The position numbers and the translations under genes are program-made. Of a stretch of DNA of 64,000 bases, positions 1,383 through 59,662 are shown piece by piece. The notes under the pieces were generated by a model. It saw nothing but the letters and a program-made list of their open reading frames with translations, was not told the DNA's origin and did no database searches. Numbering within the stretch: the stretch's first letter is position 1; the number at the start of each line of letters is the position of its first letter. The DNA comes from Spirochaetota bacterium (lineage in GTDB: Bacteria > Spirochaetota > UBA4802 > UBA5550). The DNA lies in the NCBI GenBank assembly GCA_009787025.1, contig WRGT01000071.1, forward strand, positions 45 through 64,044. The letters are read 5' to 3'.

Positions 1383-1624
1383 GGGGCTGTCTAATAAGTA
1401 ACAGGCTGACAATCAGTTACATTCTTACGTCATTGCGAGCCGTATTTTAAGTTCTCCCGATAGAACAATGTAAACTCGGCGTGGCAATCCAGTGACAGTG
1501 AATAAATTAAGACTCTGGATTGCCACGCGCAGGTTACACAATCTATACTCAAGCATTGTTGAAGCGCTCGCAATGACGCAGGTATGTACTTATCGTTTAC
1601 TCTTGTTACTTATCAGACAGCCCC
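1383..1624. repeat. MITE-like nested inverted-repeat element, a gene-less relative of the GIY-YIG element at 38046-38490
   Basis: Outer IR: GGGGCTGTCTAATAAGTAACAG (1383-1404) against its complement at 1602-1624. Inner arms 1429-1492 and 1515-1577 are about 90 percent identical (left arm) to the arms flanking the GIY-YIG ORF. A 22-nt loop occupies the place of the ORF. Confidence 0.75.
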
Positions 1625-20605: not shown

Positions 20606-20837
20606 GAGCGACCGATTCGGTCGCAAAACCAGCTGTCCAAATCGCAGGGACAAACAAAAAATAAAGGCTGGGGCTGTCTGATAAGCAACACGCAGGCAAT
20701 TGTATATGTTAAATAATCCCGTAGGGATGAATTGAGATGTTTATAAACGACCCGCTGGAATGTTTATTGTTCCAATCAGGCGCTGGAAAGATTGAGTGAA
20801 AAAATATTTTATTTTCTCATAAAACAAATCGCAGGTC

Positions 20838-23732: not shown

Positions 23733-25001
23733 ATGAAAGTTTTAAAATTCGGCGGAGCATCCGTAAAGGATGCAGATTCGGTAAAAAATGTTGCAAATAT
23801 CCTCTCTCTTTACAGAGGAGAAAAGATCGTTGCCGTAATCTCAGCAATGGGTAAAACCACAAATGCTCTGGAAAAACTTCTCAGCGCTTATTATTACAGC
23901 TCCGGAGATATTGACGAAGAGTTTTCAAAAATTAAAGCATACCATATAGATATAGCTAAGGGATTATTTACAGATTCTAACCACGAAATATACTCAGAGC
24001 TTGAGAATATCTTTGCATTTCTAAAAACAAAATTACTTCTTCCGAATTCGGATAACTATGACTATGAGTATGACCAAATTGTATCTATAGGAGAAATAAT
24101 ATCATCTAAAATTCTCAGCGCTTACCTAAATTCGGCTGGTATAAATAACAGCTGGATAGATGCAAGAGCAGTTATAAGAACAGACCATATATACAGAGAA
24201 GCAAGAATTGATTGGACTAAAACCGTTGAATTAGTTAAAGACTCAATGCAGTTTAACCATGAAAAAATTTATGTTACTCAGGGATTTATCGGTTCCACTG
24301 CCGAACATATTACAACCACACTTGGACGGGAAGGCTCCGACTTTTCAGCTGCGATCTTAGCTTACAGCTTAAACGCAGAAGAAGTAATAATATGGAAGGA
24401 TGTGTCCGGCGTGCTAAATGCAGATCCGAAATACTTTGATAATACTATAAAACTTGATCAGCTTTCATATCATGATGCCATAGAGCTTGCATATTATGGA
24501 GCAAGCGTTATACATCCAAAGACAATAAAACCTCTTCAAAATAAAAAAATTCCTCTTTATGTTAAATCATTTACAAATCCAAAGATTGAAGGGACTATAA
24601 TTCGGAGTGATAAAACCGAGCTTGCCATACCGTCATTTATTTTTAAGATGAATCAGGTTCTTATAACCATAGCGTCAAGGGATTTCTCTTTTATTGCGGA
24701 ACAGAATCTTGGAGATATCTTCTATAAGCTGTCTAATCTGGGCGTAAGGATAAATGTAATGCAGAACACAGCTCTGAGCTTTTCCATATCTGTTGACTGG
24801 AATGAAAAAAAAATCCCTGAGCTGATAAAATTATTGGAGAAAGACTATATAATAAAATATAACACGAATCTTGAGCTTGTAACTATAAGAAATTATGATA
24901 ATGAAACAATAGAACGCGTAACAATAAATAAAGAGATACTCCTTGAAGAAAAATCAAGAAACACTATACAGATGGTAATGAGGGATATTGCAATCCTTTA
25001 A
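23733..25001 (+). CDS. aspartate kinase
   Basis: N-terminus MKVLKFGGASV. 422 aa with C-terminal ACT-like region. Confidence 0.85.
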   Translation: MKVLKFGGASVKDADSVKNVANILSLYRGEKIVAVISAMGKTTNALEKLLSAYYYSSGDIDEEFSKIKAYHIDIAKGLFTDSNHEIYSELENIFAFLKTKLLLPNSDNYDYEYDQIVSIGEIISSKILSAYLNSAGINNSWIDARAVIRTDHIYREARIDWTKTVELVKDSMQFNHEKIYVTQGFIGSTAEHITTTLGREGSDFSAAILAYSLNAEEVIIWKDVSGVLNADPKYFDNTIKLDQLSYHDAIELAYYGASVIHPKTIKPLQNKKIPLYVKSFTNPKIEGTIIRSDKTELAIPSFIFKMNQVLITIASRDFSFIAEQNLGDIFYKLSNLGVRINVMQNTALSFSISVDWNEKKIPELIKLLEKDYIIKYNTNLELVTIRNYDNETIERVTINKEILLEEKSRNTIQMVMRDIAIL

Positions 25002-25038
25002 AGTATCCTATAAGGACAGATGTATCTGCAAGTATCAT

Positions 25039-25235
25039 CTATTTCCTCATAGCCTTATAATCGGGATGATCGCTGAATTTAATTTTCCCTCTTAATTCTT
25101 TGATATTTTTTCTTTTTCTGTATTTACATATTCTCTTAAAGCCGTTTCAACTAATTCCTTTTTAGTGGTGATTGTCTGAGAATATTTAAAAGCCTCTTCC
25201 ACCAATTCATCATTTAGTAAAATATTTGTCCTCAT
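25039..25235 (-). pseudogene. frameshifted VapB/DUF2191-type antitoxin, orphan
   Basis: MRTNILLNDELVEEAFKYSQTITTKKELVETALREYV then a stop. A shifted frame continues KNIKELRGKIKFSDHPDYKAMRK. The break lies in an A-rich run. No PIN gene is adjacent. Confidence 0.6.
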
Positions 25236-25384
25236 GATCTACCTCCGATACACATAGTAATACACGGAATAATACAATAATACATAAAAAATTTTAAGTC
25301 TTTTCTAAAAAATTATAGATAAGCAATGCACAATGCGCAATAGGCAAGAAGTAAAAATCATTGTGCATAGATTGAGTAACCTGA

Positions 25385-25478
25385 GCGCGGCAATCCAGAG
25401 TCTTAATTTATTCAGCCGGATTGCCGCGCCGAGTTTACATTATATTACAATGAAAGTTAAAATACGGTTCGCAATGAC
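25385..25478. repeat. truncated, inverted copy of the GIY-YIG-element arm plus central hairpin
   Basis: GCGCGGCAATCCAG-loop-CCGGATTGCCGCGCCGAGTTTACATT...AAAATACGGTTCGCAATGAC. The loop is the reverse complement of the loop at 1493-1514. Confidence 0.7.
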
Positions 25479-37261: not shown

Positions 37262-37894
37262 GTGAAAAAAATTAAAATCTTCGCAGTAATTATAACTCTT
37301 TTTACAGCAGTTTCAGCATACGCTGAATATGAGGCAAGATATAATAAAAAGCAATCACCTAATGTACTATTTGATATTAATTTTGATGATCTTTCGCCAT
37401 ATTGGGGATTAAACTCAAGATATTCATTCTCCGATTCAAAGACATGGCTTGGCGGAGCAAGAGCAGGTCTTCTGATAGATCATAATTTTGCAATCGGACT
37501 TGGAGCAATGGGAGTTATACATTTCAAAGATACTGAGAAGCTTTTAAATGCCCCATACGATAGTTATTACAATAAAACAAGATTATATTATGGAGGAATG
37601 ACGCTTGCATACTATTTCAATCCAAAAGATCTTATTATTTTCTCTGTAGGCAGCCTTATAGGCGGCGGACTTCTTCACTTTGACAAAAATAAAAGCGTAA
37701 TCATTTTAAATGATGTAAATGACAAATTTTTTGTTGTTGAGCCTGAGATTAATGTCTTCTTGAATATAATACCATACTGCCGTATAGGGGTCGGTTCTTC
37801 ATACAGATTTACAAAGGGACTCAATACTAATGGTTTAAATAAAGATTTCAGAGATTTTACAGTTTCAGCCTCAATAGAGATTGGTGTATTTTAA
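37262..37894 (+). CDS. small outer-membrane beta-barrel-like protein
   Basis: Signal peptide ending AVSAYA. Alternating hydrophobic pattern and a C-terminal ...IEIGVF (terminal Phe typical of OMPs). GTG start after GGAGG. Confidence 0.6.
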   Translation: MKKIKIFAVIITLFTAVSAYAEYEARYNKKQSPNVLFDINFDDLSPYWGLNSRYSFSDSKTWLGGARAGLLIDHNFAIGLGAMGVIHFKDTEKLLNAPYDSYYNKTRLYYGGMTLAYYFNPKDLIIFSVGSLIGGGLLHFDKNKSVIILNDVNDKFFVVEPEINVFLNIIPYCRIGVGSSYRFTKGLNTNGLNKDFRDFTVSASIEIGVF

Positions 37895-37968
37895 CATATT
37901 TTTTCTCTATACATCTCCATTTTAATAATGTCTCAATAGAGATTGGTGTATTTTAACATATTTTTTCT
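37870..37968. repeat. 37-bp direct repeat duplicating the 3' end of the OMP gene
   Basis: CTCAATAGAGATTGGTGTATTTTAACATATTTTTTCT occurs at 37870-37906 and again at 37932-37968. The copies are separated by 25 nt. Confidence 0.9.
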
Positions 37969-38045
37969 ATCAAGCTTTCGGAACTGTAACAGAAATTCCA
38001 TTTTATGCCATTGCTGTACAGGTTAAACAATTAGTTACATAATAC

Positions 38046-38490
38046 GTCATCGCGAGCCGTATTTAAGTTCACAGGTGAGAACAATGTAAACTCGGCGTGG
38101 CGATCCAGAAAGAAAGAATAAGAGAATAAAATGAACAATTCAAAACATGGATATGTATATATTCTCTTTAACAAAAGAAACGGGACATTATATACAGGCG
38201 TTACCTCAAATTTGATAAAGCGTGTATATGAGCATAAAACTAAAGTAAGTGGCAGCTTTACAAGTAAATATGAAATTGATAAGTTAGGCTATTATGAAAC
38301 ACACAGCACCATACTTACAGCGATAGAGCGTGAAAAACAGATAAAAAAAAGTCCAAGAAAAATGAAATTAGCCTTGATAGAAAGTATTAATCCTGAATGG
38401 ATAGACTTGTATAATAAAATCATCTAACTGGATCGCCACGCCGAGTTTACATTGTAGTATTGACAAACTTAAAATCCGGCTCGCGATGAC
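38046..38490. mobile_element. GIY-YIG gene embedded between 63-bp imperfect inverted repeats (putative autonomous member of a repeat family)
   Basis: Arms 38046-38108 and 38428-38490: the terminal 14 nt and inner 28 nt are perfectly complementary. The ORF fills the loop, and the right arm starts at the nucleotide after the stop codon. Confidence 0.7.
38131..38427 (+). CDS. small GIY-YIG (URI-domain) nuclease family protein
   Basis: 98 aa with GYVYILFN ... LYTGVTSNLIKRVYEHK ... EREKQIK, the GIY-YIG motif order. Confidence 0.85.
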   Translation: MNNSKHGYVYILFNKRNGTLYTGVTSNLIKRVYEHKTKVSGSFTSKYEIDKLGYYETHSTILTAIEREKQIKKSPRKMKLALIESINPEWIDLYNKII

Positions 38491-38499
38491 ATCCAAAAC

Positions 38500-40248
38500 A
38501 TGAACAGATATAAACTAACAGATTGGCTTCCTACAACAAAAAAAGAAGCATTGCTTAGAGGATGGGACGATTTAGACGTCGTCTTATTTACAGGCGATGC
38601 ATACATAGACCATCCCTCATTCGGAAGCGCAGTAATAGGACGAATTATTGAGAGCATGGGATTTAAGGTTGCAATGGTGCCTCAACCCAACTGGCAGGAT
38701 GATCTCCGCGACTTTAAAAAGTTTGGCGTACCCAACCTGTTCTTTGCTGTTACATCGGGCTGCATGGATTCCATGATAAATCACTATACTGCAAATAAAC
38801 GATTAAGAAAAGACGACTCATATACTCCCGGCGGTAAAGCAGGATTTAGACCTGACTATGCCGTATCGGTATATTCATCCATTCTAAAAAAACTGTTCCC
38901 CGATGTACCGATTATTGCAGGCGGCGTAGAAGCGTCACTGAGAAGATTTACACACTATGATTATTGGAGCGACTCACTTAAGCCTTCCATAATATCCGAC
39001 GGTTCTATAGACCTTTTAGTATATGGTATGGGAGAAAAACCGATTATTGAACTTCTTGAATTAATGAAAAAGGGCGTGCCGTTTACATCTCTTAAAACAG
39101 TACATCAAACAGCTATAAAAGTACAGAGCCGGGATATGATTCCAATAAATAAAAATTGGGAAGATATGGAATTACACTCTCACGAGGAATGTCTTTTGGA
39201 GAAAAAGAAGTTTGGAGAAAATCACATTATCATTGAGAGATATTCTTTAAATGATAATACAAGGCTTATTCAAAGATACGGAGATTCATATATTATAATA
39301 AATCCAAAACAGAAAGAGTCTCACAGCGACAATATAGATACAGCCTTTGACCTTCCATATACGCGTCTTCCTCACCCTAAATATAAAGATAAGGGCGTTC
39401 CTGCATATGATATGATACGCCATTCAATTACGCTTCACAGGGGATGTTTCGGAGGATGCAGTTTCTGTTCAATAACAATGCACCAAGGTAAAAGAATACT
39501 AAACAGAACAGAAAAATCGATATTGCAAGAATTGAAAAAAATAACGGAACTGGAAGATTTTAAAGGATATATATCAGACATGGGCGGACCAACTGCAAAC
39601 ATGTACATGATGAAAGGCGAAGACCAGTCTAAGTGTAATAAGTGCCTCAAGCCTTCATGTTTGTTCCCGAATATTTGCGGCAATCTTGTTTATGATCATA
39701 AACCGTTAATAGATATATATTCAAAGAGTGAAAAAACTAACGGGGTAAAAAAAATATTCGTATCAAGCGGAATAAGATACGACCTGATACTCAGCTCCGA
39801 CCATAAAAAAAGCGAAAGATATTCATGTATGGAGTACATTGACAGAGTTGTCAGAAACCATACCTCAGGGAGATTAAAAGCCGCTCCAGAGCATACATCC
39901 GACCATGTACTTAAACTTATGAGAAAACCGTCATATACTCTGTTTGAAAAATTCAAATCAATATTTGATAAAATCTCAAAAGAAGCAGGACTAAAGCAGC
40001 AGATCATTCCATACTTCATATCGTCTCATCCCGGATCAAAAATTGAGGATATGGCGGAACTTGTCGCTGTTACAAAAAAGTCAAGGTATAAGTTGGAACA
40101 GGTACAGGACTTTACGCCAACGCCAATGACTCTGTCGTCAACGATTTATTACACAGGGATTGATCCATATACCGGATATGAAGTTTATTCTGCAAAGAGC
40201 AAGAAGGAGAGAGATGCTCAGCGGAGGTTGATTTTTTGGTGGAAATAG
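38500..40248 (+). CDS. ygiQ: YgiQ-family radical SAM protein (UPF0313)
   Basis: N-terminal LPTTKKEALLRGWDDLDVVLFTGDAYIDHPSFG and the CxxxCxxC motif CFGGCSFC. 582 aa. Confidence 0.85.
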   Translation: MNRYKLTDWLPTTKKEALLRGWDDLDVVLFTGDAYIDHPSFGSAVIGRIIESMGFKVAMVPQPNWQDDLRDFKKFGVPNLFFAVTSGCMDSMINHYTANKRLRKDDSYTPGGKAGFRPDYAVSVYSSILKKLFPDVPIIAGGVEASLRRFTHYDYWSDSLKPSIISDGSIDLLVYGMGEKPIIELLELMKKGVPFTSLKTVHQTAIKVQSRDMIPINKNWEDMELHSHEECLLEKKKFGENHIIIERYSLNDNTRLIQRYGDSYIIINPKQKESHSDNIDTAFDLPYTRLPHPKYKDKGVPAYDMIRHSITLHRGCFGGCSFCSITMHQGKRILNRTEKSILQELKKITELEDFKGYISDMGGPTANMYMMKGEDQSKCNKCLKPSCLFPNICGNLVYDHKPLIDIYSKSEKTNGVKKIFVSSGIRYDLILSSDHKKSERYSCMEYIDRVVRNHTSGRLKAAPEHTSDHVLKLMRKPSYTLFEKFKSIFDKISKEAGLKQQIIPYFISSHPGSKIEDMAELVAVTKKSRYKLEQVQDFTPTPMTLSSTIYYTGIDPYTGYEVYSAKSKKERDAQRRLIFWWK

Positions 40249-59388: not shown

Positions 59389-59662
59389 AATTTAATCCTC
59401 TATATAAAAAATTTATATTAATATCTCTTATTCTTGCCTCATCGCTGTACTGTTAAACAAACTCAGCGTAGCAATTCAGTAGAATAATTTTATATTATTG
59501 CTGTGCATAGTTAAAAATTTAAATACGGCTACCAATGGCGAAATAAAAAACCGTTTCTTCTTAAAATGACCATAAAAAAATCTGCGTTAATCTCTCCTAA
59601 ATCTGCGTCATCTGCGTGCCCCGTTTTTATGATAGATCCCATTGCACACTGAACATTGCGTT

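Follow-up and report, generated by a model that had tools for sequence, protein, structure and literature searches.

A GIY-YIG nuclease gene between inverted hairpin units in a spirochaete genome: a probable Ssn-type cassette and a lineage-specific family of gene-less relatives

The window, by which we mean the whole 64,000-nucleotide stretch of spirochaete DNA that was analysed (contig C71 of its genome), contains a gene for a small GIY-YIG nuclease placed between two inverted hairpin units, or SRMs. Upstream of the left unit is a short conserved module, and the right unit is followed within a few nucleotides by the start codon of a radical-SAM gene. The features of the locus, in the order of the forward strand, are these:

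38030..38044, plus strand: conserved module ATTAGTTACATAATA that adjoins the CGTC head on its 5' side; a cut site of the published Ssn type would fall inside it (judging from PMC11893778).
38045..38108, plus strand: left hairpin unit (SRM, L-type), with CGTC head, basal stem ATCGC/GCGAT, inner stem GCCG/CGGC, an apical insertion of ~33 nt and a CCAG tail.
38109..38130, plus strand: purine-rich spacer AAAGAAAGAATAAGAGAATAAA, running from the left unit to the start codon; probably the leader/RBS region.
38131..38427, plus strand: ssn gene, encoding a 98-aa single-domain GIY-YIG nuclease, apparently intact (Y10, Y21, R31, H35, E68).
38428..38491, minus strand: right hairpin unit (SRM, L-type, inverted, head TGTC), abutting the stop codon and ending 8–9 nt before the radical-SAM ATG.

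The assignment of the plus-strand open reading frame at 38131-38427 to the GIY-YIG nucleases, first made from the letters alone, is borne out by a match to Pfam PF01541 (E 2.5e-14, 53.8 bits). The match spans residues 7–79 of the 98-aa protein, which belongs to the single-domain class of ~90–100 aa. Tyr10, Tyr21, Arg31, His35, and Glu68 occupy invariant or near-invariant columns of the homologue alignment, and the spacing of Y10-Y21-E68 is the one published for Y6-Y17-E64 of the Neisseria enzyme. Homologues number in the thousands, share 55–81% identity with the protein at a length of ~98 aa, and come from almost every bacterial phylum. Three of them (L040, L079, and L082), at 58–64% identity, are encoded by genes with flanks that carry the exact published NTS consensus, which around the gene of the 64%-identical L040 protein reads CGTCATTCCCGCGAAAGCGGGAATCCAG. 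An NCBIfam search returned no specific model, only a sub-threshold match to the intron-endonuclease model TIGR01453, and a PDB sequence search matched no solved structure. Together, these properties fit an Ssn-family nuclease, with the placement in the cd10448 clade being indirect.

The family has a characterised member in Neisseria meningitidis. SsnA, a 94-aa GIY-YIG protein of cd10448, binds an oriented hairpin, the NTS (CGTCATTCCCGCGMAVGCGGGAATCYRG), only as single-stranded DNA, and cuts a few nucleotides 5' of it while being inactive on double-stranded DNA and on RNA (PMC11893778). Critical for this activity are a GTC 5' of the palindrome and a C 3' of it, and a YRG tail is also part of the motif; in the cell, SsnA lowers transformation by NTS-bearing DNA (PMC11893778). 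The NTS-ssnA-NTS architecture has been likened to an insertion sequence, with mobility left as a hypothesis (PMC11893778). The sequence-only reading of the window knew of no mechanistic description of such an arrangement. That statement has to be withdrawn, since the family, its hairpin-specific cleavage of single-stranded DNA, and the NTS-ssnA-NTS architecture are all described by Chenal et al., Nat Commun 2025 (PMC11893778). Judged by its sequence, the present locus is an instance of the already published Ssn/SRM (NTS) system and not a new arrangement.

The inverted arms that the sequence-only reading had drawn around the gene (38046-38108 and 38428-38490) are confirmed by their complementarity, as is the perfect pairing that it reported for their terminal 14 nt and inner 28 nt. 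Specifically, the outer parts (38046-38064 / 38472-38490) are 95% complementary over 19 nt, the perfect 14 nt included, and the inner parts (38081-38113 / 38423-38455) are 94% complementary over 33 nt, the perfect 28 nt included. The 14-mer and the 19-mer of the arms each have four matches in the window, where 0.04 and 0.00, respectively, are expected. The right arm does begin at the first base past the stop codon, with TAA at 38425-38427 and the arm starting at 38428. Such abutment is a trait of the family, the distance between the ssn stop codon and the downstream unit being 0 in 7 of 50 loci and at most 4 nt in 13 of the 50. Both arms of the gene are of one type, L, of the two types (L and R) found in this genome, so the locus has the form of an L-gene-L cassette in which the CGTC and TGTC heads point outward, one on each strand.

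The genome that was searched (1.66 Mb in 72 contigs, 73.6% complete, 35% G+C) contains 82 hairpin units, 41 of L-type and 41 of R-type, with lengths of 60–69 nt, mostly 63, and the form GTCAT[C/T]GCGAG...GCG[T/C]GGC[G/A]ATCC[A/G]G. This answers the call for a genome-wide copy count that accompanied the original observation: the hairpin family is not confined to the window. An exact long-unit pattern has 72 matches in the genome and none in a reversed control; in 40 related genomes, including 34 with a completeness of 90% or more, it has no match. The hairpin family is, hence, a lineage-specific expansion in this genome. The base preceding GTC is C in 63 of the 82 units and T in the other 19. 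GTC itself is kept in 80 units, and CC[A/G]G likewise in 80 (CCAG in 71, CCGG in 9), both counts being biased upward because the units were collected with a pattern that already requires most of these bases.

Most of the units are arranged in pairs. We found 44 tail-to-tail dimers, mostly L-R pairs, in which the CCAG tails face inward and the CGTC heads outward. The loop between the two units measures 17 nt in 29 dimers, 32 nt in 4, and 83–99 nt in another 4, and the ssn copy has 319 nt at this position. Around many dimers there are further modules, namely a conserved TTAGTTACAT flank, tandem ATGTCGGGCTCAGCGCGA units, and an outer 21-nt inverted repeat, which together form a BIME-like mosaic. 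Units lie within 400 nt of 13 of the 144 contig ends, which indicates that they break the assembly. All 32 complete dimers are intergenic; among the 26 that have two neighbouring genes, 18 lie between tandem, 7 between divergent, and 1 between convergent genes. Three candidate interpretations of individual copies were discarded. Although the right arm at the ssn locus ends 8–9 nt before the radical-SAM start codon, the 32 complete dimers keep no constant distance to start codons, and targeting of such codons by the repeats was rejected. The long-loop variants (83–99 nt; for example on C21, C70, and C72) share 'TTAGATGAT' with the 3' end of the gene, but local alignment to the gene is no better than for shuffled sequences (p 0.08–0.77), and these longer-loop gene-less copies carry no detectable gene remnant. 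Finally, a single outer-repeat pair without SRM on C48 holds another mosaic module inside, so it does not serve as a clean empty site.

Each arm of the gene consists of a CGTC head, a 5-bp basal stem (AT[C/T]GC paired with GC[G/A]AT), a small internal loop, a 4-bp inner stem, an apical insertion of ~33 nt, and a terminal C-CAG. Across the 82 units the basal stem covaries, occurring as ATTGC/GCAAT in 57, ATCGC/GCGAT in 21, and ATCGT/ACGAT in 2; its main covarying position is T-A in 58 units, C-G in 23, and mispaired in 1. A fourth variant, ATCAC/GTGAT, is present in a contig of a related organism (L153). The inner stem covaries between the unit types, being GCCG/CGGC in L and GCGC/GCGC in R. 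Folding of one unit as single-stranded DNA yields both the basal and the inner stem, with a modest stability of −9.4 kcal/mol (z −1.5), and pairing between the arms of a dimer is much stronger, at −17 kcal/mol. In the dimers, however, L units with GCGAT stand opposite R units with ATTGC and this difference is uncompensated, so selection appears to act on the hairpin within each unit. The covariation thus supports intra-unit stems rather than a long helix between the arms.

The same data bear on whether the arms could instead act as RNA, in the form of a terminator, an attenuator, or an mRNA-stabilising hairpin, and belong to a REP-like regulatory family unrelated to the nuclease. Transcription is common among REP-type repeats (Di Nocera et al. 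2013, PMC3733652), and the juxtaposition of GCGAT in L with ATTGC in R would put G-U-compatible positions into the inter-arm helix on this strand. Against a role of this kind stand the intra-unit covariation just described, the lack of any Rfam match at the gathering threshold, and the lack of a terminator-like site in a promoter/terminator scan that gave nothing above chance. Furthermore, convergent genes enclose only 1 of the 26 dimers that have a gene on either side, and RNA is not bound by the characterised Ssn enzymes. We consider an RNA-level function of the arms highly improbable.

At 63 nt, the units are longer than the 27–35 nt usual for SRMs because of the ~33-nt insertion in the apical loop. 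Their basal part matches that of ordinary SRMs, such as those of a 73%-identical Oscillospiraceae homologue (CGTCATTGCGAG-GAGCCATTTATGGCGAC-GTGGCAATCCAG), and one homologue of 76% identity carries units of 32 nt. The degenerate SRM pattern that has been published, HGTCWYN(0-2)YYVSBRHN(0-5)WNVSBRGN(0-2)RNCYNB for units of 20–50 nt, is a search heuristic and not a definition of the family. It does not match at the arms, and it gave one match genome-wide compared with 1–6 in shuffled sequences, which is chance level. Long units therefore escape the published pattern, and the published survey would have scored this genome as SRM-free.

To place the association between gene and hairpins in a wider setting, we collected 80 homologous loci from many phyla, scanned them for inverted repeats around the gene, and then applied a strict structural definition of the unit. 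In most of these loci the arms read CGTCATTGCGAG...GAAGCAATCCAG or GTCATTCCCGCGAAAGCGGGAATCCAG, with the downstream copy 0–15 nt past the stop codon and a unit length of typically 27–35 nt. Inverted units flank the gene on both sides in 34 of the 80 loci and on one side in 26, the background in the distal flanks being 0.2 units per kb. These frequencies match those of the survey by Chenal et al. 2025, in which an SRM lies near 71% of homologues and on both sides in 42% (PMC11893778). The comparison supports a link between nuclease gene and hairpin family that reaches well beyond one window.

The window itself holds gene-less relatives of the cassette and a further module of the mosaic at four places:

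1429..1577, plus strand: gene-less tail-to-tail dimer, with L unit 1429-1492 (plus), a 22-nt loop and R unit 1515-1577 (minus), inside the outer inverted repeat 1383-1403 / 1604-1624.
20670..20690, plus strand: solitary outer repeat module GGGGCTGTCTGATAAGCAACA, not an SRM; part of the mosaic that often encloses SRM dimers.
25366..25478, minus strand: gene-less dimer; its L unit, 25416-25478 (minus), is complete, and its R unit, ~25366-25398 (plus), is 5'-truncated.
59439..59540, plus strand: decayed repeat copy, a degenerate L-like unit of the long-loop type, not recovered by the unit searches.

These assignments amend what had been read from the letters. The copy at 1429-1577, taken for the same arms without the gene, is indeed gene-less and has an L-type left arm, but its right arm is the diverged sister unit R (GTCATTGCGAGCGC...CCTGCGCGTGGCAATCCAG). 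Similarly, the copy at 25385-25478 was described as truncated or degenerate, which applies to its R unit but not to its complete L unit, whereas the description fully suits the strongly decayed copy at 59439-59540. The segment 20655-20700 had been mistaken for the outer end of an arm and instead contains a different repeat module, GGGGCTGTCTGATAAGCAACA. Around many copies this module makes up the outermost inverted repeat, as at 1383-1403 / 1604-1624 of the window; its form is GGGGCTGTCTGATAAG[T/C]AACA.

Elsewhere in the genome, a second Ssn-like copy on contig C60 is a pseudogene truncated at both ends, and a third GIY-YIG match on C49, encoding 111 aa, lies between fhs and folD and belongs to a different subfamily; this other small paralogue, which has no repeats, is only 38% identical to the 98-aa Ssn protein. 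Other GIY-YIG paralogues in the same hairpin loop, proposed as a check on the original observation, were ruled out, since the C60 pseudogene and the C49 gene are both armless.

The sequence-only reading also offered the alternative that the gene homed into an older palindromic repeat and came to lie in its loop. It would then have behaved as free-standing homing endonuclease genes do, and its association with the arms would be secondary. Homing endonucleases do occur among GIY-YIG enzymes, and the gene sits where gene-less dimers have their 17-nt loop. These dimers are L-R pairs, however, and the arms of the gene are L-L. Moreover, the L-gene-L cassette recurs elsewhere with diverged alleles, and flanking by inverted units is conserved across phyla despite quite different hairpin sequences. 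The protein has no DNA-binding extension of the I-TevI type and scores 24.7 bits on the intron-endonuclease model, for which the cut-off is 56. Insertion into a pre-existing palindrome is thus contradicted both by the make-up of the arms and by the conservation of the architecture, and we regard it as a very improbable origin of the locus.

Evidence on the behaviour of the cassette comes from its relatives. Two homologues, 81% and 76% identical (L186 and L187), lie in the same L-gene-L cassette but in other genomic contexts, which makes one cassette in three contexts in all. In both, the order is TAGTTA[C/A]AT-N-CGTC, L unit, purine-rich spacer equivalent to AAAGAAAGAATAAGAGAATAAA, gene, and inverted L unit, and in L187 both arms carry the compensated stem ATCGT/ACGAT. 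A (T)TAGTTACAT-N4-6 module precedes CGTC in these two cassettes as well as in most gene-less copies. The gene is present in 17 of the 40 related genomes, with identities of at most 59% there, while the best identities elsewhere are 73% in assemblies from other phyla and 81% among metagenome proteins. Its patchy occurrence in relatives, together with closest homologues in other phyla, points to horizontal transfer. Several of the top genome matches carry isolate names that we take to be those of a termite-gut MAG series. From these sequence comparisons, the L-ssn-L cassette is most likely a discrete, horizontally moving unit. The ssn locus itself is identical in two independent assemblies, and the gene is intact in both.

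A scan of metagenomes for the L tail yielded 71 stretches, some identical to this genome and others from organisms that are 80–92% identical to it in flanking DNA. One stretch from a related organism (L153) has the structure L-(last ~70 nt of ssn)-L, a deletion derivative of the cassette, and this genome has unrelated sequence at that site. Another related stretch (L125) carries a 5'-truncated ssn pseudogene with an in-frame stop, adjoining an inverted L arm. At all 13 compared sites where a related organism has a unit and the orthologous position is covered by a contig of this genome, there is none within 700 nt here. Clean filled/empty alignments between conserved genes were obtained for two pairs (L166 with C55, and L135 with C28), which differ by ~180–215 nt including mosaic flanks, and no target-site duplication is visible in either pair. 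In six genomes of the same genus, neither ssn nor an SRM lies upstream of the radical-SAM orthologue; these orthologues are only ~72% identical in amino acids and their upstream synteny is lost, and they were set aside as a source of an exact empty site. The cassette and the gene-less dimers both show gain, loss, and decay.

How far these data bear out the proposed pairing of an autonomous element with MITE-like derivatives can now be stated. The shared cassette, the deletion derivative in L153, the 13 of 13 unshared sites, and the absence of the long units from all 40 relatives speak for it. The composition of the common gene-less copies speaks against it, as they are L-R rather than L-L and carry an R arm that is absent from gene-bearing cassettes, which leaves their descent from the cassette conjectural. 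On balance, the evidence favours an IS/MITE-like relationship, with mobilisation by the nuclease being unproven.

Taken as a whole, the observations make it likely that the gene encodes an Ssn nuclease, that the arms are its cognate hairpins, and that the gene-less units are their non-autonomous relatives. By analogy with the Neisseria enzyme, the Ssn protein would bind the folded unit only in single-stranded DNA, such as that exposed at replication forks or brought in by transformation or conjugation, and would then place a nick in the ATTAGTTACATAATA flank, a few nucleotides 5' of CGTC. It would recognise L units, and perhaps R units too, by their basal stem and flanks. Because the characterised hairpins are 28-nt units with loops of 3–5 nt in which the hairpin sequence matters, binding of an enzyme to the expanded hairpin is an extrapolation. 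As the two units lie on opposite strands with their heads outward, each strand would be cut in the conserved TTAGTTACAT-N flank, immediately beyond the end of the cassette. The gene-less L-R dimers would represent non-autonomous relatives of the cassette that expanded in this lineage and turn over fast.

A hydrolytic GIY-YIG enzyme forms no covalent intermediate and carries out no strand transfer alone, so copying must rely on host repair or recombination. We put forward tentatively, as an unproven and somewhat doubtful possibility, that spread of the repeats depends on breaks made by Ssn in single-stranded DNA followed by such host processes. The predicted cut does not define the mobile unit, since the repeat extends past it (conserved TTAGTTACAT and mosaic modules) and the filled/empty pairs differ by the whole mosaic. 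Furthermore, gains and losses involve a stretch of mosaic longer than the distance from one predicted cut to the other, which argues against simple cut-defined transposition. A stronger version, that L-ssn-L is a self-sufficient mobile element whose nuclease is the sole element-encoded driver of the spread of gene-less dimers, through nicked hairpins and copying by host repair, seems to us rather unlikely. If true, movement akin to transposition would be driven by a hydrolytic GIY-YIG enzyme, and the CGTC-tagged REPs would have their 'missing transposase'.

Alternatively, the nuclease may have been domesticated by its host, where it would restrict incoming single-stranded DNA that bears hairpins and so control transformation or recombination, with the repeats maintained by the host and spread by other means. 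Transformation control is the only in vivo role known for a member of the family, in Neisseria, and the gene studied here is intact and identical in independent assemblies. The strictly intergenic location of the complete dimers (32 of 32) is in keeping with such a role. Yet the second copy in the genome is a truncated pseudogene, related organisms hold only ssn remnants at the captured loci, and the gene is patchy among relatives and has its closest homologues in other phyla. A pseudogene, remnants, and a patchy distribution are signatures of a selfish, frequently lost gene, and domestication strikes us as a rather unlikely account.

Several implications follow for the Ssn system. Among hairpins with a conserved basal stem and conserved flanks, the apical part ranges in length from 4 to ~33 nt. 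With so variable an apical part, the published pattern misses whole repeat families, so that estimates are too low both for how common SRMs are and for the share of ssn genes that they flank. The present data set, with its burst of units, a cassette in three contexts, a deletion derivative, and unshared sites, bears on the question of whether NTS-ssn-NTS is mobile. In addition, the L and R units provide two diverged candidate recognition sites for one enzyme, a point of practical interest given that work is under way to turn Ssn enzymes into site-specific cutters of single-stranded DNA.

The locus can be compared with five known kinds of system. It differs from homing endonucleases of the I-TevI type in that the protein has 98 aa and no DNA-binding extension and in that there is no intron context at the locus. 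With IS/MITE pairs it shares a single gene-bearing copy with inverted ends, many short gene-less copies, a deletion derivative, lineage expansion, and differences in presence and absence, whereas it has no recognised transposase, no detected target-site duplication, L-R as opposed to L-L ends, and extra mosaic modules in the variable unit. REP/BIME elements with their RAYT enzymes (IS200/IS605-type Y1) likewise combine a small enzyme gene between inverted copies of the hairpin repeat on which the enzyme probably acts, hairpin recognition in single-stranded DNA, which is predicted for the present enzyme, and mosaic clusters. In those systems, however, the enzyme is an HUH tyrosine transposase that acts through a covalent intermediate, and not a GIY-YIG hydrolase, and the tag is GTAG where the present units have CGTC.

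CGTC-tagged REPs, as defined by Di Nocera et al., BMC Genomics 2013, include dRS3 of Neisseria and RPE-4/RPE-6 of Rickettsia, are reported from Spirochaetes as well, and are stated to be without a dedicated transposase (PMC3733652). Our units resemble them in the CGTC/TGTC tag, the stem starting with AT, the unpaired CCA-type tail, and the arrangement in inverted dimers that are often heterodimers (PMC3733652). They depart from the 8–9-bp stems, 4–5-nt loops, and 20–40-nt length of these REPs in being 63 nt long and in having a linked enzyme gene.

The Ssn/NTS system is the fifth. Here the differences lie in the unit, which has 63 nt compared with 20–50 nt (28 nt in Neisseria) and fails the published SRM pattern, in the gene-less copies, which are L-R heterodimers within a multi-module mosaic, and in the spirochaete host. 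The likenesses are a single-domain GIY-YIG protein of ~95 aa, inverted, oriented hairpins on both sides of its gene, a CGTC head, a stem that starts with AT, and a C-CAG tail, along with a motif dispersed in many gene-less copies and a wide, patchy distribution across phyla.

The right arm of the ssn cassette (38428-38491, minus strand), which flanks the 98-aa GIY-YIG nuclease gene, ends 8–9 nt before the ATG of the downstream radical-SAM gene at 38500. Within this arm lie promoter-like hexamers (TTTACA and TAAAAT, 18-nt spacer, 10/12 match; 38446-38475, plus strand) oriented toward the radical-SAM gene. No Shine-Dalgarno-like sequence is present in the 8–9 nt between the arm and the ATG; purine-rich leaders instead precede the radical-SAM orthologues of the same-genus genomes. 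Because promoter-like sites are no more numerous than expected by chance, we regard the idea that the arm supplies expression signals for the radical-SAM gene as only a hint.

Upstream of the cassette, a perfect 37-nt direct repeat occurs with a spacing of 62 nt, and its first copy overlaps the final codons and stop of an OMP-like gene, indicating that the 3′ end of this gene has been duplicated immediately 5′ of the cassette. The repeat may have been left behind when DNA was inserted or rearranged here in the past.
37262-37894: 210-aa OMP-like gene
37870-37906: first copy of the 37-nt repeat
37932-37968: second copy of the 37-nt repeat

A second Ssn-like copy is found on another contig of the same genome.
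C60:7226-7435 (L003 1471-1752), minus strand: Ssn-like copy, 77% identity over residues 13-82
The first Tyr motif and ~15 residues at the C-terminus are missing from this copy, and no hairpins flank it, which together identify it as a decayed paralogue.

In a related organism (locus L153), a stretch of DNA at about 2270-2330, immediately adjoining the ssn-remnant element, is nearly identical to one in the window's own genome (C67, about 24990-25060), whereas the neighboring intergenic DNA is unalignable between the two organisms. The stretch reads GGAAGAGGATGG[G/A]ATC[T/C]GGTGGTTC[C/T]CGCGGTCTTCAAAACCGTTGGCTGTAATTTATTGCAGCGGCAG and may represent a small RNA gene.

The assembly containing the window is 1.66 Mb with an estimated completeness of 73.6%, whereas the seven genomes assigned to the same genus span 3.7–5.2 Mb, and the radical-SAM protein that it has in common with them is only ~72% identical. 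Either the bin is far less complete than estimated, or the lineage has undergone strong genome reduction and stands far from the genus in which it has been placed.

At locus L108, short 32-nt units of the CGTC-headed Ssn-related motif (SRM) form arrays of alternating orientation (1150-1500 and 1797-2300) that enclose a 76%-identical Ssn homologue from another sample. Gene callers report these arrays as "ORFs" of 79 and 139 aa, illustrating that SRM-type repeat arrays give rise to spurious hypothetical proteins. Across the window's own genome, further repeat modules (in the window at 1383-1403/1604-1624 and 20670-20690) occur around SRM dimers.
Module 1: outer inverted repeat GGGGCTGTCTGATAAGTAACA, 53 matches genome-wide with ≤3 mismatches
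Module 2: tandem units of ATGTCGGGCTCAGCGCGA(CT)
Module 3: hairpin of the GTAACAAAAGT type
One pair of outer repeats (C48:22267-22367) encloses no SRM. Together, the modules compose a BIME-like mosaic that surrounds the dimers.
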